Assembly (NCBI GenBank): GCA_016183305.1
Contig: JACPEW010000003.1
Span: 1-52,691, forward strand
Source: Candidatus Daviesbacteria bacterium
GTDB lineage: Bacteria > Patescibacteriota > Microgenomatia > Daviesbacterales > UBA10151
Reading direction: 5' to 3'
DNA: 52,691 nucleotides
Under the pieces are notes generated by a model. That model worked only from the letters and a program-made list of their open reading frames with translations. It was not told the DNA's origin and ran no database searches. Below are positions 24,394 to 52,691 of the stretch, piece by piece. The position numbers and the translations under genes are program-made. Position 1 is the stretch's first letter. Every line of letters begins with the position of its first letter.

Positions 24394-27300
24394 CTATTTT
24401 GCTTGGAGAGCTTCTGCAATCCCTGAATAACCAACTTTTTTAGCAAGGCGATCTATATAAAAGAAGTCTTTAACCAAAAGAGTAGTTTTTAGAGGAAACT
24501 TCAAACCCTCTTTTCTTAAAATAACTGCTAAACGCATTAGCCTATCTGTAGGATCTGATACTTGAGAGAGAGTTCCCGATTGCTCTATTACTCTTTGTCT
24601 AATTTCTTTACTTATTGCTGCACCTTGAGATTGGATATAATCAAGACATAATGTAGTTGCGTGAGGCGTGTTATTTAACGCTCCGACTAAATTCCTTAAA
24701 AAAAGTTTGTCTCTAAAACCAAATTCTTGATAATAGTTTCTATCAAGAAATACTACCTCATTACGAGGAGTAACTCTTATATTACCAGGGTGAATATCAG
24801 AGTGAACAAGACCATCTTTTACTTGTTCAATAAAGTTTTTAGCGACTAAAGAGGTTACTTGTCTTAAATCATGTCCTTGTTCCCTTAGTTTATCTAACTC
24901 GGTTAAATTTATACCATCAATAAATTCTTCTAAAGCAAAATATTTATTTTCAGGTTGATGAGAAGTTGGTACCTTAATTTTATATCTTCCACCAGTTGAG
25001 TAACCATTATGTTTTCTCTTAAACTCTCTATCCATTTCTAAAAATTCAGTAAAATCAATGTCTCCTCTTATCCATTCCTTTATATCATCAAGCATAGCGC
25101 CTGTGGGAGCGAAAGCCGAATCTCTTTCTGCTAGTGCAGTAAAAACTTCCGTTAATAGTTTATAAGTGGTATCGGTATGATGTCCTGCATTCGGATTTAA
25201 AATTTTAACTGCTAAATCTTGTCCGTCAGAAATAGTAGTTCTAAAAACGCTCATAAGAGATCCTCCACCTAATCGTTCGTTTAGACCAGCCAACCTTTCC
25301 CTTGCTTCTGGCCATTCTCTAAGTAAAGTCTGATGTGCTGTAATTTTAGATTGTCCACCCATTTTATCGTAAACTTGATTAAATGCTTGCTCTAAGTTCG
25401 GTGGCAATTCAACATATTGTCCTACTAATTGCAGGAATCGGACTCCAGGAGCACCTAGCTTTTGAGCCATTTCAAGCATAAATTCATTAACTGTCATTCT
25501 TTGTCGAGCAGGTAAAACTTCGGAGCCTCTTAATAAACCATCTACTGTGTCCTCATATTCGCGGCGCATTGCATCACTAACTTTAAATTCCTGTTGCTTC
25601 TCGCTGTTACCAGTAATAAATTGGAAAAGTTCATTGACATCATTTTCATCCACCTTTCTAACAGCTTTTGGCCTAATAAAATCTGATAGGTGTGTTGTTT
25701 GACTACTTTGTTTATTTTTATTTCCAACAAGCTCGCCGTTTTCATCTAGGTCGTAATAATCTGGACCCATTTCTTTCTCCCAGTATTCACCTAAATCCTC
25801 ATCTTTATCAAATTCCTCATGCGTTTCTAGCTCTTCGTATCCAAGTGGTGGTTCCTCAGTTCTTATAATGTCCAACCATGGAACCTGATTTGACGGAGGT
25901 ATTAACATTCTTTCCTGAATTATTGGAGAAATAGCAAAATACAAAAGGTCATAACTTGCTTTTCGAGCCACTTCCTGCATCACATCTCTTATAACTTTTA
26001 GGTATTTTTCTTCTGAGGCGTCACTGGCAACAACATAATTATCAAGGAAAAAATTAACAAACTCTAACCTTTGAGTTAAATCTTTATCGGTAAAGATTCC
26101 TTTGTCTCCTGTCAGCAAATCTCTTATTAAAACATATTTTGATTGAGCATCAAGTCGGTATAACCTATGCATTAAATCGTTAAGATGCACATTATCATAA
26201 CCCATACAAGCAACCCATTTTTTATATAAATACCTTTTTAAGTATCCATCATCTTCACCATTGCCTACACAAGCTAAGAGAAGTTCATATTTATTATCTA
26301 AGAAAAATTTTTGCACTAAATCCTCAGTCATAACAAGTTTACCGATACCCTCTAATGAAGAATCTTGAGTTAGCAAAGACAATAATCTTTGGCTTGCCAT
26401 TTCAATTTCCTCATGTGTTCTGGCATTTTGCTCAACAAAATCTGATACAGCTTTAAGTGAAAGCAGGCGTCGTCCATTTAACTCTTTTTCTAAAAATGCG
26501 AATCCTTCCTCGAACGACAACATTTTACTTAGTTCTCCCCAAATAACATTTTGTAGCCTTACAGCCAAACTATGATCTTCTAAATAGGTACTTAGGTAGT
26601 ACAGATCCTTAAGGTCTTGAATATTCCCAAAGTCAAACGTGTATGTTCTAAAAACCTCGCTAAGTAATGCTCTTTTTCTATCTGCAGATTCTGTGGTTAT
26701 ATTACTGTCTTCTAATCTATCAACGCCATAGTGATAGAATGGAAATTCGTTCGTTAGGGTTTCGAGCATTTTGCTAAAGTCAGCGCGTGAACCTGAACTT
26801 AGAGCTTTGTTTAATAAAACATATTTACCATGTTTGAAAAAATCCACCCAGTCTTCGTTCTTTTGTGGCCCAAATAAAGTATCTGTTGGAGAATCCACAC
26901 CAGTTTCTTTTACTAATGCGCTTTCATTTGATGCTAGATTATAAAAGTTTCGAAACCACTCAAGGTTAAATCCTTCATCTTTTAAATATTCACCAAATCT
27001 TTCATGAGGATTTAGCAAATTATTTGATGCATAATCATGAGCAAGCAGTAGCACAACTTTAAAATCAAATAGTCCCTTCTCTAATGGACTTGAAAAGTTA
27101 TTCAGTTGTGGAGTTTCTGAAACTATTTGCTCAACAAGTGAATTCCATTCATTATCACACAAAAGATGGTCGCCCCAAAGCTGCTCATCTGCTTGTATTG
27201 CTTTTCTAAAATTAGCAAGGAGTACTAATAGTTCATGAGGAGATTGAATCTGTTTTTCCTGAAGTATTTGCCTTAATTCTGGTAAATATTTATCCGTATC

Positions 27301-40239: not shown

Positions 40240-41364
40240 GTGGACTACGCTTTCTTTAAAAGAGAAGCTATGACTAAAACATTAGGCGATACTTTAAAAG
40301 AAATTCAGATTGCCTTAGGCAATCCGCATAAAAAGCTCGCCGGGGTACTAAAATATTACCTCGGCTTTTTAAATGTCAAAGAAAATGGGATTAAAGAAGA
40401 AAATAATTCTCACAATGGTGAGAAAATACAAACCATCAAGCATGGAAAAATAACCTGGGTGGATGTCAGGAACCCCAGCAGAAAAGAAATTTCAGAACTT
40501 GCCCAAAAATATCCATTCCACCCTTTGCATCTTGAGGATTGTGTATCCAAAGGCCAATTTCCCAAAATTGAACAAAATGATGAGGATAAATACATCTTTT
40601 TGCTTCTCCGCCTTCCCCGCTATAACACCCATGACAGGACTATCAATATCAGCCAGATTTGTTTTTTCCTAGGTGAAAATTACTTAGTAACAATACATGA
40701 AAGTATTAATGATTCAATTGCCGCAATATTCAGTGAAGCAAAATCCGGTATTGAGGAGCGCAAAGCCTATACCGGCAGTTCTGCTGCCCACCTGTTATAT
40801 ACAATTATTAAAAAATTAACTGATGATTTATCTCCCCTTTTGCAATCAATCCTCATAGAAGTGGACGAGACAGAAGATATTGTTTTTGATGATAAAGTTT
40901 CAGGTATTTATAAAATTGGCCAACTAAGACGCAAAATCTTATCTTCAAGAAGAGCAATCGGACCGCTTAGAACACTGCTTAAAGATATGACATCCAGGAT
41001 CAATAAGTTTGCTTCCGTGAACTTATCTGTCTATTTTGATGGTATTACCCATCAAATAGATAAAGCCTGGGAAACTTTAGAGGAAGCCCGCGATACAGTA
41101 GATATTTATAAAGATGCAGATTATACAATCAGCAGCGAAAGGACCAACAGGATTTTAGCAATCCTAACTATCATCTTTACCTTCACCATTCCTGCTACAG
41201 TTATTGGAACATTTTATGGAATGAATATTTTGCTTCCTGGAGGTATAGAGGCAGGCTCCTGGATCTTTTTGGGCCGTTATACTACCTTTATGGTAATTAT
41301 GATTTCAGCAGCTATTCCGGCTTTGCTAATGCATGCATATTTCCGTAAAAGAGGCTGGTTTTAA
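40240..41364 (+). CDS. corA: CorA-family Mg2+/divalent cation transporter
   Basis: TWVDV..P, FHPLHLED, LTIIFTFTIPATVIGTFYGMN signature. Confidence 0.92.
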   Translation: MDYAFFKREAMTKTLGDTLKEIQIALGNPHKKLAGVLKYYLGFLNVKENGIKEENNSHNGEKIQTIKHGKITWVDVRNPSRKEISELAQKYPFHPLHLEDCVSKGQFPKIEQNDEDKYIFLLLRLPRYNTHDRTINISQICFFLGENYLVTIHESINDSIAAIFSEAKSGIEERKAYTGSSAAHLLYTIIKKLTDDLSPLLQSILIEVDETEDIVFDDKVSGIYKIGQLRRKILSSRRAIGPLRTLLKDMTSRINKFASVNLSVYFDGITHQIDKAWETLEEARDTVDIYKDADYTISSERTNRILAILTIIFTFTIPATVIGTFYGMNILLPGGIEAGSWIFLGRYTTFMVIMISAAIPALLMHAYFRKRGWF

Positions 41365-44881: not shown

Positions 44882-45283
44882 CTAATGGCTAAACCATTGG
44901 AGAAAGTGGGTTATTAAACCAATTAAAAAAGAAGCTGCTATAGCTACTAAAAAAGGGGAAAGTTCTAAAGGGGGAATCATCAAACCATTATAAAAATAAC
45001 CTGCAAAAGTATAGGGGACCAGTTGAAACTCTGGCACTATAGTAGTCAAAGCATATAAAGCTATCACATTAGTAATCCAGGCAAAGAGTCCTAAAGTTAG
45101 CATGTTCAGAGGTAAAAATAAGATTTTTAATAGAGGAACCAGCAACCAATTAATTAACATAAAAGCTACAGCCCCAATAAACAAACTCTTAAATCCACCA
45201 GTATAGGTTAAACCAGAAATAATTTTAGTGGTAGCAAGCAAAGAAACTAAATTAATTAGAAAATATCTGAGCAGTTTTTTCAT
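44882..45283 (-). CDS. YvlD/phage-holin-4-2-family membrane protein
   Basis: INWLLVPLLKILFLPLNMLTLGLF..ITN signature; four TM segments. Confidence 0.85.
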   Translation of the reverse strand: MKKLLRYFLINLVSLLATTKIISGLTYTGGFKSLFIGAVAFMLINWLLVPLLKILFLPLNMLTLGLFAWITNVIALYALTTIVPEFQLVPYTFAGYFYNGLMIPPLELSPFLVAIAASFLIGLITHFLQWFSH

Positions 45284-45289
45284 GGAATA

Positions 45290-45337
45290 GTAACAAGTAC
45301 ATAAGTAACAAGTTATTTTTAACTAGTTACTTGTTAC
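45290..45337. repeat. heptamer array (GTAACAA/TTGTTAC) in inverted arrangement
   Basis: GTAACAAGTTA-TTTT-TAACTAGTTAC hairpin plus flanking heptamers; includes the uvrC stop codon. Confidence 0.7.
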
Positions 45338-46682
45338 CTTTATTGTACTGGTTACCAGATAATAATATTCTACCACGTAGTTTCCTATGGTAGCTGATAG
45401 CAAACCTGTGGGCTTCATCCCGCAGTTTCCTAAGTAGTTTTAAGGATAAGCTGTTTTTAGGCAGCTTAACAATTTCCCCTTCAGGCGGATAAAGCCACTC
45501 CATTCTCTTAGCCAAGCCAAAAATTGGTAATTGTACATTGTTCATTGTACATTGTTCATCCGCTCCTCCGACCTGTCCTCTGCCTCCATCTATAATAATT
45601 AAATCAGGCAAAGGCCACTCAGGATGGTTTAATCTCCTTCTCATCATTTCTTTATGCATCCCTACATCATTAGGTTTCCCTTCCAGGTGAATCTTAAATT
45701 TTCTGTACTGGGATTTATCAATTTCACCATTGGTTAAAACTACCATTGAACCCGTTGCCTCTTTGCCTTGGATATTGGAAATATCATAGCCTTCTATCCT
45801 TTCAGGAAGTTTTTTCAAACCTAGATCCTTTTGTAGCTTTTCTAAGGCTAGTTTATTTTCCTCCTCTAAAAAATTAGGATTTTCCAAATATAATCTGGTT
45901 CTATTAGGTTGAGTTAAATAACTAACCCCTTGTATAATTTTTTTAAATGCAGAGGCTTTTTCAAACATCTGCTTTTTCGAGGCTTTCGTCATTTGGGCAG
46001 TTAAATCCCCAAGCAACTGAATAACTTTTCCATCCATAAATTTAGAAAACCTATTTATAATTAGCAAATAATCTTTTTGTGAAATTACCCCAGCGCAGGG
46101 TCCAGGACAAAGCTTTAGGTGGTAGTAAAAGCAAGAGCGTCTACCGGCTACTGACTTCTGACTACTGCTTTTTGCGGTAGACTGTAGACTGTAGACGGTC
46201 CGCATTGAATTACTACACCAAGGAAACACTCTTCTTAAAGATCTTAAAGTATCTTTAACTATTCTGCCCGAAGGAAATGGGCCCCAGGATTTTTTAACTG
46301 TACTTAAATCTTTTTTTCTGGCTGTAATAACCTTGGGATAATCTTCTTTAGTAATAGCTATATATAAATAATCCTTATCATCAGTCAGCCTGATATTAAA
46401 AGGTGGCAAGTACTTCTTAATTAGATTTGCTTCTAAAATCAAGGCTTCAAGTTCTGATTCAACTACAATAGTCTCCACTTTGGCAATTTGACTAGCAAAT
46501 ATAGGAGCTCCTGCTGATTTGGAGAAGTATGAGGCCACACGGTGATATAAATCTATAGCCTTGCCCACATATAAAACATTTCCTGAGAAATCTTTATGGA
46601 TATAAACACCAGGTTTGTGTGGTATCTTTGATTTATCTATTTTATTAATTTTTTGGTTTCCTAATTCTTTTATGGTAAACAT
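45327..46682 (-). CDS. uvrC: excinuclease ABC subunit C (short form without HhH tail)
   Basis: PGVYI..YVGKAIDL..RVASYF (GIY-YIG), LEANLIKKY.PPFN, IEGYDISNIQG, PDLIIIDGGRGQ, LRDEAHRFAI. Confidence 0.95.
   Translation of the reverse strand: MFTIKELGNQKINKIDKSKIPHKPGVYIHKDFSGNVLYVGKAIDLYHRVASYFSKSAGAPIFASQIAKVETIVVESELEALILEANLIKKYLPPFNIRLTDDKDYLYIAITKEDYPKVITARKKDLSTVKKSWGPFPSGRIVKDTLRSLRRVFPWCSNSMRTVYSLQSTAKSSSQKSVAGRRSCFYYHLKLCPGPCAGVISQKDYLLIINRFSKFMDGKVIQLLGDLTAQMTKASKKQMFEKASAFKKIIQGVSYLTQPNRTRLYLENPNFLEEENKLALEKLQKDLGLKKLPERIEGYDISNIQGKEATGSMVVLTNGEIDKSQYRKFKIHLEGKPNDVGMHKEMMRRRLNHPEWPLPDLIIIDGGRGQVGGADEQCTMNNVQLPIFGLAKRMEWLYPPEGEIVKLPKNSLSLKLLRKLRDEAHRFAISYHRKLRGRILLSGNQYNKGNK
45529..45559. 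repeat. heptamer tandem repeat (CATTGTW) x4 inside uvrC
   Basis: AATTGTA CATTGTT CATTGTA CATTGTT CAT, encoding EQCTMNNVQL. Confidence 0.85.
46147..46200. repeat. two opposed heptamer triplets inside uvrC
   Basis: GCTACTG ACTTCTG ACTACTG and GCGGTAG ACTGTAG ACTGTAG, encoding TVYSLQSTAKSSSQKSVA. Confidence 0.75.
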
Positions 46683-48788: not shown

Positions 48789-49430
48789 ATGCCTGGAAGG
48801 ATAATTCCATTGGTAAGCGGGGAATATTACCATGTCTTCAACAGGGGAACAGAGAAAAAGGATATCTATATTCAACCACGTGATTATAATAGGTTCCAGA
48901 AAACCTTTTATTACTATAAGCATTGTGGTCCAAAGCTAAAATTTTCTAAATTTAATAAATCAAATTTGTTTAAACCACTTTTAAATGAAAAGTTAATTGA
49001 GATTATCTGTTATTGCCTCATGCCTAATCATTTCCATTTTCTTATCAAGCAATTAAAGGATAAAGGTATTTCCACCTTTTTAAGCCAACTTTCTAATAGC
49101 TACACAAAATATTTTAATACTAAATATGATCGTATTGGACCGCTCCTGCAAGGAACCTTTAAAGCTGTTAAAATTGAAACAGATGAACAACTTGTCCATG
49201 TATCCCGCTACATTCATTTAAATCCAGTAGTTTCCGGATTAGTTAATAAACCAGAGGCTTATAAATGGTCTTCCTGTTTGGAATACCTAACTCAGAGCCC
49301 ATCCTTTTGTGAAACTGAGACAGTAATGAACCTTTTTAAATCTGCTCAGGAGTACCAGAAATTTATTGGAGATCAAATTGACTATGCCACCCAGCTTGAA
49401 TTAATAAAACACCACCTTTTAGATGAATAA
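48789..49430 (+). mobile_element. REP-associated tyrosine (Y1/HUH) transposase, RAYT
   Basis: YYHVFNRG, ICYCLMPNHFHFL (HUH), YTKYFN, GPLLQGTFKA, RYIHLNPV, YKWSS. Confidence 0.92.
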
Positions 49431-52553: not shown

Positions 52554-52588
52554 CCTGTTACTTGTTACTTGTGCCTTGTCACTTGTTA
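52554..52588. repeat. heptamer tandem repeat (CTTGTTA) x5 inside uvrA
   Basis: CCTGTTA CTTGTTA CTTGTGC CTTGTCA CTTGTTA, encoding VTSDKAQVTSNR. Confidence 0.85.
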
Positions 52589-52691
52589 CTCTTTCTACTA
52601 TCTGTTCCACACTCATCTTCTCTACTTCCCTGCCACAAACCGGGCAATGAGGATGACCTACTCTGGCAAATAGCAGCCTTAAATAATCATA

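Follow-up and report, generated by a model that had tools for sequence, protein, structure and literature searches.

How seven-base repeats, whose unit is not a multiple of three, come to be carried and translated within a housekeeping gene is the question raised by the uvrC locus of an uncultured Candidatus Daviesbacteria (CPR) genome (assembly GCA_016183305.1, contig JACPEW010000003.1; the window analyzed comprises 52,691 nt, positions 1 to 52,691 of the forward strand, and the genome is referred to below as G000). An initial annotation based on the sequence alone had noted heptamer repeats at three places in the gene and proposed a self-propagating heptamer system in CPR bacteria, analogous to the STRR repeats of filamentous cyanobacteria, that generates loop diversity in proteins by an unknown mechanism. 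The observation holds, as all three segments are present, and it extends beyond uvrC to a lineage-wide and apparently undescribed repeat system. The proposed interpretation is largely supported, although the copying mechanism remains an inference.

Heptamer-periodic segments of uvrC

The uvrC gene (45327..46682, minus strand) encodes 451 residues with a GIY-YIG domain (Pfam, residues 24-93) and a UvrC RNase H-like endonuclease domain (UvrC_RNaseH_dom, 284-429), with PDB matches to 2NRT and 1YD6. The catalytic-motif residues (EGYDIS, DGG, EAHRF) are conserved, with D300, D365 and H425 in invariant columns, while a C-terminal HhH domain is lacking, as in the 19 related orthologues whose C-terminal ends were read. 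Tandem Repeats Finder (TRF) reports period-7 arrays at 45530-45559 (ATTGTAC/ATTGTTC, 4.3 copies, 100% matched as period 14), 46148-46167 (CTACTGA), 46177-46196 (GTAGACT, 100% matched) and 45289-45313 (AGTAACA), and translation of the minus-strand ORF gives DGGRGQVGGADEQCTMNNVQLPIFGLAKR, WCSNSMRTVYSLQSTAKSSSQKSVAGRRSCFYYH and, at the C-terminus, LRGRILLSGNQYNKGNK followed by the stop.

Site 1 (45530..45559, minus strand) is an (ACAATGT/ACAATGA)x4 array that in the sense strand reads ATGAACA ATGTACA ATGAACA ATGTACA AT, an ABAB pattern, and encodes DEQCTMNNVQ directly after the DGGRGQ motif. The initial annotation had placed this array in a linker, which requires correction, since the array is not an insertion and does not lengthen a linker but occupies, residue for residue, the helix that follows DGGxGQ in ordinary UvrC. 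The alignment to the helix NAAIEALKEIGKDC of T. maritima 2NRT is ungapped, outgroup UvrC has the same 54 nt, and in the AF2 model residues 368-380 are predicted as helical with a pLDDT of about 95.

Site 2 (46139..46196, minus strand) is a 58-nt hairpin of opposed heptamers, in the sense strand (GTCTACA)x2 GTCTACC, then GC-AAAAA-GC, then AGTAGTC AGAAGTC AGTAGCC GGTAGAC, which adds about 18 residues (TVYSLQSTAKSSSQKSVAG) between Cys156 and the CFYYH...CPGPC cluster. Its predicted RNA fold has -18.2 kcal/mol and z = -2.67 against dinucleotide shuffles, and residues 161-180 have a pLDDT below 50.

Site 3 (45287..45356, minus strand) is a hairpin of about 70 nt built of GTAACAA/TTGTTAC-type heptamers (z = -2.76) and lies between uvrC and the next gene, a 133-aa membrane protein of the Phage_holin_4_2 family (44882..45283, minus strand), whose start is separated from uvrC only by this element. 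The left arm encodes the tail SGNQYNKGNK, of which about the last 9 residues are supplied by the element, and the TAA stop (45327-45329), which lies inside GGTAACAAGTAAC, while the right arm ends 3-4 nt before the ATG of the downstream gene (45283). Residues 442-451 have a pLDDT below 50. In most of the 19 other orthologues read, the uvrC stop overlaps or closely abuts the next start (ATGA in 8), and only five (the loci L002, L006, L012, L015 and G000 itself) carry a longer insert. No intrinsic terminator was found at site 3, and the uvrC elements have no Rfam match.

Conservation of these segments in distant UvrC had been named in advance as an observation that would speak against the proposal. 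It was not found, as outgroups have a plain helix at site 1, a short loop at site 2 and an overlapping stop/start (ATGA) at site 3.

Excess of period 7 in the genome and in relatives

The second condition named beforehand, that period 7 be no more frequent than periods 5, 6 or 8, does not apply either, as period 7 is about 15-40 times more frequent than these. Genome-wide TRF at a score of at least 36 finds 103 period-7 arrays against 5 (period 6) and 7 (period 8), and at a score of at least 40 the counts are 79 against 2 and 2. Five order-3 Markov shuffles of the genome give a mean of 1.0 period-7 arrays, which places the excess at about 100-fold. The excess recurs in 562 kb of DNA around uvrC from 89 Daviesbacteria loci, several of which represent the same genome twice, with 43 period-7 arrays at a score of at least 40 against 0 and 2, and is absent from 66 kb of outgroup DNA. 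It also recurs in 80-kb samples of the related genomes G008, G020 and G104, but not G024. The commonest unit classes are AAAATTG, AAAATTC, AAAAGTC and AACCTAC, and long arrays share irregular units at 6 or more loci. Arrays of the AAAANTN type occur in about half of the class and a third of the phylum; for this pattern search the reversed pattern is not a valid control, because it is the same periodic pattern, and the result therefore rests on the negligible chance expectation of 20 fixed bases and on TRF of the sampled DNA.

Two thirds of the arrays (79 of 117) lie inside ORFs of at least 100 aa, although arrays are also over-represented in intergenic DNA (26% of arrays against 11.6% of random positions). 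Each set of three heptamers equals seven codons and hence encodes a 7-residue periodic peptide, and site 1 is a helix, so that selection at the protein level for heptad-like or coiled-coil peptides could be considered, as could chance, composition or an assembly artefact. These readings are refuted by the identity of units at synonymous positions, the intergenic excess, the shuffles and the presence of arrays at site 1 in at least 25 MAGs assembled independently by different studies.

Array lengths inside ORFs peak at 30-32 nt, with a second group of six arrays at 47-55 nt, about three units longer, and intergenic arrays likewise cluster near 30 nt (4-4.6 units). These lengths were taken from TRF at a lower threshold, as a purpose-written run finder was too strict, and since the score threshold truncates short arrays, the mode near 30 nt is partly an artefact of detection. 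A comparison of frame-preserving lengths between coding and intergenic arrays, proposed with the initial annotation, gave no significant difference in this one genome and so left the matter undecided, and in the loci of the relatives it was uninformative because ORF calling left almost no intergenic DNA. Simple slippage does not explain the clustering of intergenic arrays near 4-4.6 units.

Unit turnover at constant length

At least 25 of 73 distinct Daviesbacteria orthologues carry a clear array at site 1, with units ATGTACA, GAAATTA, AAATTCG/A, AAATTAC, AACTACG/A, GAATTAT, AACTTAT and others, so that the unit, and with it the peptide, differs in almost every species, which directly shows the generation of diversity that had been proposed; nothing shows that this diversity is adaptive. 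All of these arrays are 54 nt long except that of locus L017 (57 nt), and basal Daviesbacteria and all outgroups have a non-periodic helix of the same 54 nt. Seven orthologues are short (six of exactly 33 nt, that is 21 nt shorter, and one of 39 nt) and are nested in or next to array clades, the tree requiring at least 4-5 changes; for example, L013 is sister to L032 with an SH-aLRT of 95. G000 differs from the perfect (ATGTACA)x4 of L081 by the same T>A change 14 nt apart, with no change in length. Site 1 looks like in-situ homogenization rather than insertion.

A related array lies in uvrA (52556..52590, minus strand), where (ACAAGTA)x5, of the same unit family as site 3, encodes RVTSDKAQVTSN. 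The co-assembled variant contig C12 carries (AAAAGTC)n at the same site, the two variants being 100% identical for the first 94 nt of the overlap and about 95% identical beyond the array, and differing by 3 nt and by unit. Whether copy number varies by whole units between close relatives was thus left undecided, since at site 1 only 3-unit (21-nt) differences are seen between species and variation within populations was not examined in sequencing reads.

The equal-length replacement at site 1 and the two uvrA variants, which carry arrays from two different genome-wide families at one site, would also fit a rival reading in which arrays and hairpins are not products of local slippage but are written or converted from a genomic pool of unit families onto existing DNA, roughly 30 nt at a time and without changing length, possibly by ectopic short-patch conversion or reiterative gap filling. 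Consistent with this, one site of a Mur-ligase-like gene has a GC palindrome in contig C9 and a (CCCTATA)x4.4 array in contig C21, with only 6 nt difference in length, the length clustering near 30 nt holds in intergenic DNA as well, identical irregular 27-mers occur at many loci in the genomes G449 and G425, and G010, whose uvrC array is ATGTACA, has the largest pool of that unit. However, no candidate enzyme was identified, as G000 contains no reverse transcriptase (PF00078) and its RAYT-like genes are flanked by other palindromes, the 33-nt collapsed forms fit ordinary 21-nt deletion, and equal length can be explained by selection on the helix. In its strongest form, this reading would mean that Patescibacteria possess an undescribed DNA transaction that overwrites patches of about 30 nt with 7-nt-periodic copies at unchanged length and copies heptamer-periodic hairpins between loci, resulting in a continual, templated rewriting of tolerant protein segments (helices, loops, signal peptides, termini) in otherwise minimal genomes. 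This would be a new mutational mechanism rather than ordinary slippage; it is not excluded but is considered unlikely.

Dispersed hairpin families at sites 2 and 3

Sites 2 and 3 belong to dispersed families with diagnostic irregularities, which supports self-propagation for these two segments. The site 2 family has 4 copies in G000 (in uvrC and at 9263-9312 of contig C19, 27985 of contig C17 and 46062 of C17) and 9 copies in 8 of the 95 other genomes of the family, with no hits for the reversed-pattern control. Besides uvrC, the hosts are polA (twice), dnaX, fpg, trmD, rplD, a carB-like gene and a glycosyltransferase gene, and 9 of 10 coding copies are read in the same frame. In the uvrC and rplD copies, whose right arm is AGTAGTC-type, the unit that would read TAG in frame is AGAAG, while the other coding copies carry TAG-free GGAAG- or AGAAG-type arms. 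The site 3 family has further copies at C9 40400 and C17 26470, and its conserved 24-mer occurs in 8 of 96 genomes (G000 and 7 others) across 7 genera, again with no control hits.

The recurrence of repair and replication genes among the hosts (uvrC, uvrA, polA, dnaX, fpg), together with a unit length at which a change of one unit would switch uvrC off, might point to functional elements, such as contingency switches that frameshift repair genes, RNA or DNA structures that tune translation or mRNA stability, or binding sites for a protein that reads 7-nt units. Many intergenic AAAATTG-type arrays end 1-13 nt before a start codon, resembling the TAACTGA repeats of Beggiatoaceae (PMC4679880), the site 3 family is conserved in sequence across 7 genera, and a perfect ATTGTAC array is present at what appears to be the same intergenic locus in two species, G000 and G010, although this orthology rests only on identical following bases. 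In contrast, units differ freely between species at the same site, arrays occur in either orientation and in essential genes such as rplD, where a frameshift would be lethal, decayed and collapsed arrays are tolerated, and with only about 4 units the arrays are short for an efficient switch. No orthologue is out of frame at site 1, where all linker lengths are multiples of 3, which does not fit a phase-variable locus, while the few frames with stops elsewhere were not traced to the arrays and population reads were not examined for out-of-frame lengths. With neither a terminator nor an Rfam match at the uvrC elements, a functional role appears doubtful.

Origin of the repeats

The reading favored here, with moderate confidence, is that uvrC has been colonized at three tolerant places by a lineage-wide system of 7-nt-periodic repeat DNA carried as translated passengers. 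In this view, the site 1 array arose in the ancestor of one Daviesbacteria clade, is held at the ancestral length (54 nt between GQ and FGLAK) by selection on the protein, and is repeatedly re-homogenized in a 7- or 14-nt register by slippage in 21-nt steps and/or short same-length conversion within the array, whereas sites 2 and 3 are copies of two hairpin families whose arms are themselves heptamer arrays. One copy would have landed in frame in the disordered loop of the Cys-rich region and the other in the junction between uvrC and the next gene, where the reading frame runs into it, gains about 9 residues and finds a stop, with selection then keeping only versions that preserve the frame and contain no stop codon. 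The analysis itself demonstrates the excess of period 7, the orthologous persistence with unit turnover, the states differing by 21 nt, the dispersal of the hairpin families to non-orthologous genes, the stop-avoiding unit variants and the structural tolerance of the sites. It is inferred, in contrast, that the driving process is polymerase or repair slippage, or conversion, with a 7-nt register (the only published idea; Mrazek et al., 2007, as summarized in PMC4692102), that the hairpins spread by an unidentified copying step, and that the elements are neutral or slightly deleterious rather than useful. It must be taken into account that no enzyme or intermediate has been identified and that simple slippage cannot create a 4-unit array from a single unit in frame. 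Furthermore, the recurrence of the same unit families (AAAAGTC, AAAATTC, AAAATTG and others) across the class and the phylum, and the apparent maintenance of the ATTGTAC array in G000 and G010, could indicate function or a templated process rather than neutral slippage.

Heptanucleotide repeats have been noted in bacteria since 1990 and were shown to be over-represented in 2007, but their origin is unexplained and they were regarded as mainly intergenic. Here, in CPR genomes of about 1 Mb, usually described as streamlined, they are mostly inside housekeeping genes and translated, and no description of heptamer repeats in Patescibacteria was found in the literature searched. The orthologous site in a catalytic domain of UvrC provides a natural series for measuring how such arrays are born, homogenized and lost, and the repeats are a source of rapid, non-homologous change in protein sequence that will confuse alignments, phylogenies and annotation of CPR proteins, including signal peptides. 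The existence of array-rich and array-free lineages within one class also gives a concrete handle on the question of why the period is 7.

Relation to known repeat systems

Like the STRR heptamers of filamentous cyanobacteria and the related GGGGAYT (Nostoc) and GGGAATC (Xanthomonas) repeats (PMC4692102), the arrays consist of tandem 7-nt units in several families per genome, with a strong excess over neighboring periods, inverted array pairs, and variation in length and sequence between related species at a kept position. However, STRR arrays are mostly intergenic and often long (up to about 26 units), whereas here two thirds lie inside ORFs, arrays have about 4 or about 8 A/T-rich units, and at one orthologous coding site the unit turns over between species at constant length. 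The canonical units STRR1-3 (CCCCAGT, TTGGTCA, CAACAGT) are not among the top 60 unit classes of the genome, nor are the units of the G-rich type. Small dispersed repeats nested in heptamer arrays have been described in Nostoc (Elhai et al., 2008). The survey of long SSRs in prokaryotes (Mrazek, Guo and Shah, 2007, as summarized in PMC4692102 and PMC4679880) likewise found period 7 to stand out among 5-11-nt SSRs, with slippage favored by the length of DNA held by the polymerase as the proposed cause, and the excess over periods 5, 6, 8 and 9 is found here as well. [quoted passage not shown]

The TAACTGA direct repeats of marine Beggiatoaceae (PMC4679880) share the heptamer unit, with 2-6 copies, the frequent position directly upstream of start codons, a patchy phylogenetic distribution and a constraint by stop codons in some frames, but comprise a single favored and almost only intergenic unit, compared to dozens of mostly intragenic units here. 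Rickettsia palindromic elements (RPE) are in-frame palindromic insertions that are translated within housekeeping genes at surface loops or termini, and sites 2 and 3 resemble them as dispersed, hairpin-forming elements with copies at non-orthologous sites, including in-frame copies inside ORFs. They are, however, much shorter (about 58-85 nt against 100-150 nt), occur in a different phylum and have arms built of tandem heptamers that are re-homogenized arm by arm; sequence similarity to RPE was not tested and is not expected.

A link to RAYT genes, which had been suggested for testing, is not supported for the heptamer elements. REP/REPIN elements (PMC3116915) are extragenic and flank a cognate RAYT gene, and G000 contains four RAYT-like Y1 genes of about 225 aa, each flanked by its own short palindrome, among them a 213-aa IS200-like transposase gene in the window (48789..49427, plus strand). 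The flanking sequences are GC-rich palindromes such as CACCTTAAAGGTG, which lies on both sides of the latter gene, and CCACCCTCCAGGTGGG, and neither the heptamer arrays nor the heptamer hairpins flank the RAYT-like genes or resemble these palindromes. Across 12 genomes for which both counts were available, array and RAYT-like gene numbers correlate (Spearman rho = 0.62, p = 0.03), but this is not counted as support, since the sample is small, not corrected for phylogeny and limited to one unit class, and genome G019 has 5 RAYT-like genes and no such arrays. Similar GC palindromes do sit at uvrC site 2 of relatives.

The uvrC gene and its heptamer-periodic segments

The repeats lie in a minus-strand ORF at 45327..46682 that encodes 451 aa and is identified by Pfam as UvrC, with a GIY-YIG domain at residues 24-93 and the UvrC RNase H-like endonuclease domain at residues 284-429, and that aligns to the solved T. 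maritima fragments 2NRT and 1YD0-6. A C-terminal HhH domain is absent, as it is from the 19 related orthologues whose ends were read, which terminate 6-17 residues after YHRKL. The window is the whole of contig C1 of a 940-kb, 28-contig MAG with 36% G+C, referred to here as G000.

Tandem Repeats Finder (TRF) reports six period-7 arrays on this contig, four of which lie in or at the end of uvrC, namely ATTGTAC/ATTGTTC at 45530-45559 (site 1; 4.3 copies, 100% matched as period 14), CTACTGA at 46148-46167 and GTAGACT at 46177-46196 (site 2; the latter 100% matched), and AGTAACA at 45289-45313 (site 3). A fifth array, TGTTACT x5 at 52556-52590, lies in uvrA at the contig end. The initial annotation, which had described heptamer repeats written into uvrC at three places, is confirmed in its observation. 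The peptides it gave are exactly those of the ORF, and the TAA stop (45327-45329) sits inside GGTAACAAGTAAC. The opposed arrays at site 2 and the inverted array at site 3 fold as imperfect hairpins of -18.2 and -14.3 kcal/mol, with z = -2.67 and -2.76, respectively, while no terminator-like site and no Rfam family matched the region.

Period-7 arrays in the genome and in relatives

A comparison of period 7 with neighbouring periods had been named in advance as a point on which the interpretation could fail. In the whole genome, TRF finds 160, 103, 79 and 32 period-7 arrays at scores of >=30, >=36, >=40 and >=50, whereas period 6 gives 40, 5, 2 and 0 and period 8 gives 59, 7, 2 and 0; period 14 is also raised, at 40 arrays. 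Five order-3 Markov shuffles of the genome give on average 1.0 period-7 and 8.0 period-14 arrays at score >=36. The units are diverse, with AAAATTG (15 arrays), AAAATTC (10), AAAAGTC (9) and AACCTAC (6) the commonest besides dozens of others.

Of 117 merged arrays, 79 lie inside ORFs of at least 100 aa, 30 are intergenic and 8 straddle an ORF end, while random 31-nt positions fall 84%, 11.6% and 4.4% into these classes, so that the arrays are about 2-fold enriched between genes, yet most of them are translated. Lengths inside ORFs have a clear mode at 30-32 nt (4.3-4.6 units) and a second group of six arrays at 47-55 nt. Since intergenic arrays also cluster at 26-33 nt, the contrast between CDS and intergenic DNA in 3-unit against 4-unit arrays, proposed beforehand as a probe for frame-preserving lengths, is not significant and does not settle the matter in either direction.

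The excess is not private to this MAG. In 562 kb around uvrC from 89 Daviesbacteria loci (several of which are the same genomes fetched twice), 43 period-7 arrays were found at score >=40, against 0 for period 6 and 2 for period 8, whereas 66 kb from outgroups hold none. Samples of 80 kb from other genomes (numbered with the prefix G) give 7 arrays in G008, which is of the same genus, 9 in G020, 2 in G019, 20 in G104 and 0 in G024. A pattern for four AAAANTN units matches in 162 of 301 genomes of the class and in 51 of 151 of the phylum, with more than 100 hits in some genomes; although the reversed-pattern control is meaningless for this quasi-symmetric pattern, the chance expectation for 20 fixed bases is negligible.

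Unit turnover at site 1

The segment between DGGRGQ and FGLAKR is 54 nt long in G000, in all ten outgroup UvrC sequences and in the basal Daviesbacteria. Conservation of the repeat in distant UvrC had been listed as an outcome that would count against the interpretation, but in the outgroup and basal sequences the segment encodes an ordinary helix, for example AAYEELVKAGLNIP, with a lag-7 self-identity of 0.1-0.3. The G000 protein aligns to the T. maritima helix NAAIEALKEIGKDC without a gap, and an AlphaFold2 model built on 38 orthologues (mean pLDDT 80.6) places residues 368-380 in a helix at pLDDT about 95. The array has replaced a helix at equal length.

Of the 73 distinct Daviesbacteria orthologues (numbered with the prefix L), 25 have a clear array at this site, with a lag-7 identity of 0.55-0.8, and all are 54 nt long except that of L017 (57 nt). 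The units differ, being (ATGTACA)x4 in L081, (GAAATTA)x4 in L025, L034 and L035, AAATTCG/AAATTCA in L032, AAATTCG x4 in L031, AAATTAC in L022 and L045, AACTACG/AACTACA in L027, GAACTAC in L017, GAATTAT in L028 and AACTTAT in L026. On a maximum-likelihood tree of 83 distinct UvrC sequences, from which the variable columns were dropped by the 80% fill rule, 21 of the 25 arrays fall in one clade of 40 rows (SH-aLRT 98), which also contains decayed arrays with a lag-7 identity of 0.4-0.5. Seven short forms, six of exactly 33 nt (minus 21 nt, or three units) and one of 39 nt, are nested in or next to array clades, and the tree needs at least 4-5 changes to explain them; L013 is sister to L032 (support 95) and L018 is sister to L065 (92). 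Sister species about 0.2 substitutions per site apart have different units, and G000 differs from the perfect array of L081 by the same T>A change in two units 14 nt apart, with no change in length.

From these data it is concluded that the array persists at the site, that the protein constrains its length to 54 nt or tolerates 33 nt, and that units are re-homogenised faster than species diverge. The route is an inference, and may be collapse and re-expansion in 21-nt steps or same-length conversion within the array. In L030, L042, L046, L047 and L070 the array is itself interrupted by small GC-rich palindromes (for example CCTGCCTTTGGCAGG and GCGCGCTGGCGCGC) or by longer REP-like double hairpins, which suggests that arrays or this site attract palindrome insertion. 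Further insertion hotspots are present in the same gene, as L012, L014, L015 and L017 share an insert of 8-20 residues, SYGVNLTH(T/P)RGG..., in the GIY-YIG domain after SYF near residue 52, and L016 has a separate insert, PVQPAGSTGSVNRAKQVS, in the endonuclease domain; these were not analysed at the DNA level.

Site 2, a copy of a dispersed hairpin built from heptamers

Relatives have 9-24 codons between the two Cys codons, whereas G000 has 27. The extra DNA, at 46139-46196, reads in the sense strand as two GTCTACA units and one GTCTACC unit, followed by GC-AAAAA-GC and the units AGTAGTC, AGAAGTC, AGTAGCC and GGTAGAC. BLAST finds a 90%-identical 50-nt copy at 9263-9312 of contig C19 and partial copies in contig C17. 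When aligned, four G000 copies share a plan of three GNCTACC units, then CGC-A5-GCG, then three or four (A/G)G(T/A)AGNC units, and a pattern derived from them hits 4 places in G000 and 9 places in 8 of the 95 other genomes of the family, while the reversed control gives 0 hits.

The host genes are not orthologous and comprise uvrC, the N-terminus of ribosomal protein L4 (G000 and G376), a glycosyltransferase, a carB-like gene, polA (G011 and G013), dnaX (G009), fpg (G005) and trmD (G011, with a GC palindrome nested inside the element), besides three short-ORF or intergenic places. Nine of ten coding copies are read in the same frame, giving ST(V/D/A)(Y/N)(S/G/R)L(Q/P)(S/T)TAK.... In the uvrC and rplD copies, whose right arm is AGTAGTC-type, the one unit that would be read as TAG in frame is AGAAG instead, while the other coding copies carry TAG-free GGAAG- or AGAAG-type arms, which explains why the hairpin is imperfect. 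In the model, residues 161-180 have pLDDT below 50. At the same loop relatives carry other inserts, mostly short GC-rich palindromes such as GCTTCGCAAGGGGACGCCTTGCGAAGC in L012 and CCACCCCCGGGGTGG in L011.

Site 3, a copy of a second hairpin family

In 8 of the 19 other orthologues read, the uvrC stop overlaps the ATG of the next gene (ATGA), and in six more 1-7 nt separate them. In contrast, G000 has about 70 nt between ...RGRILL and that ATG, and four relatives (L002, L006, L012 and L015) also carry longer inserts at this junction. The segment matches contig C17 at 26470-26521 (86.5% over 52 nt) and contig C9 at 40400-40470. A 24-mer from the right arm, ACTTGTYACTNNTGTACTTGTNAC, occurs 3 times in G000 and in 7 other genomes, spanning 7 genera in all, with 0 hits for the reversed control. 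The full element is an ~80-nt hairpin with GTAACAA-type arms, some copies of which are at orthologous places in four genomes of four genera (G000, G328, G371 and G374), while others, including the uvrC copy, are unique to one genome. In G000 the uvrC frame runs into the left arm, which adds SGNQYNKGNK and the stop, and residues 442-451 have pLDDT below 50.

Strain variants and copying between loci

Most contig ends of G000 overlap another contig by exactly 141 nt, which is an assembly-graph k-mer overlap, but several ends pair with 85-96% identical variants (C4/C9, C10/C18, C3/C10 and C9/C21), and the MAG therefore mixes at least two related strains. The ends of C1 (52283-52691) and C12 (28523-29003) are variants of the same uvrA stretch that overlap over about 400 nt, of which the first 94 nt are identical, while beyond the array identity is about 95%. 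At one site, however, C1 has (ACAAGTA)n and C12 has (AAAAGTC)n, 3 nt shorter, and each of these arrays belongs to a different genome-wide unit family. The C1 variant also lacks 78 nt (26 aa, TFTSRLAQSIETALKFGEGSVIVAE) that C12 has in frame, so that the C1 copy may be a deletion allele, a second diverged strain or a paralogue. Contigs C9 and C21 overlap similarly (85-95% identity), and at one site of a Mur-ligase-like gene C9 has a GC palindrome where C21 has a (CCCTATA)x4.4 array 6 nt shorter.

Long arrays at six or more loci share the irregular unit pair ...AAAACTA CAAGTC..., and in G449 and G425 an identical irregular 27-mer recurs at many loci. ATTGTAC/ATTGTAA arrays occur in 13 of 19 genomes of the genus, and G010, whose uvrC array has this unit, has most. 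Together these results show copying between loci as well as in-situ change, while the copying step itself is unidentified. A perfect (ATTGTAC)x4 array followed by ATTGCTT is present in both G000 (C9 48941-48972) and G010 (C1 77812-77846) at what looks like the same intergenic locus, despite only about 70% protein identity genome-wide, although orthology of the flanks was not examined; G008 and G014 share another perfect copy, followed by ATTGAAG. Together these results show copying between loci as well as in-situ change, while the copying step itself is unidentified.

Candidate enzymes

G000 has one IS200-like gene and four RAYT-like Y1 transposase genes of about 225 aa, the latter at 48789-49427 (plus strand) of C1 and at C2 21006-21677, C9 31756-32430 and C9 76932-77603. 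Each of the four is bracketed by its own short GC-rich palindrome, for example CACCTTAAAGGTG on both sides of the C1 gene, and three of the four are preceded by AGCTTGACACC. These palindromes resemble those at site 2 of relatives, not the heptamer elements. A correlation of RAYT-like gene counts with array counts, which had been suggested beforehand as a check, gave rho 0.62 (n = 12), but must be taken with caution, since it is crude and not corrected for phylogeny, and it is not relied upon here. A search for reverse transcriptase found none in G000.

Relation to described heptamer repeats

Heptamer repeats are described for Calothrix and Nostoc (STRR, GGGGAYT), for Xanthomonas (GGGAATC) and for Beggiatoaceae (TAACTGA), and all of these are mainly intergenic (PMC4692102; PMC4679880). 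Among the 5-11-nt SSRs of prokaryotes period 7 stands out, and the proposed cause is slippage favoured by the length of DNA held by the polymerase (Mrazek, Guo and Shah 2007, as summarised in PMC4692102 and PMC4679880). In-frame palindromic insertions occur in Rickettsia as RPE. No paper on heptamer repeats in Patescibacteria was found in the literature searched. Relative to the published heptamer repeats, what is new is the CPR host, the predominance inside housekeeping ORFs, the equal-length replacement of a structural helix with species-specific units at one orthologous site, and the hairpin families with heptamer-periodic arms that insert in frame into repair and replication genes. The interpretation put forward in the initial annotation, of a self-propagating heptamer system analogous to STRRs that generates loop diversity in proteins, is largely supported by these findings. 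The mechanism, however, is not shown by them and is inferred to be slippage or conversion in a 7-nt register together with an unidentified copying step, filtered by selection, while a dedicated patch-writing process is a live alternative.

Arrays in signal peptides and upstream of start codons

Inverted array pairs also appear to build signal peptides, both in G000 (C4 33615-33701 and C26 42677-42783) and in relatives (L024, L026, L030, L042 and L047, near position 1100-1190). The charged N-region comes from (AAAATTC)n and the hydrophobic core from the inverted (ACTTTTN)n arm, ending in A-x-A-like cleavage motifs, and in the transglutaminase-like gene upstream of uvrC the hydrophobic core is a different heptamer array in each species. 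Furthermore, arrays of the AAAATTG/ATTGAAA type end 1-13 nt before start codons at C10 4572, C13 9807, C19 3170, C23 3697 and 5068, and C5 44320 of G000. These may be leader elements, comparable to the TAACTGA repeats upstream of starts in Beggiatoaceae, and two of them have the same upstream (ttgggatttg) and downstream (ATGAATAA) context.
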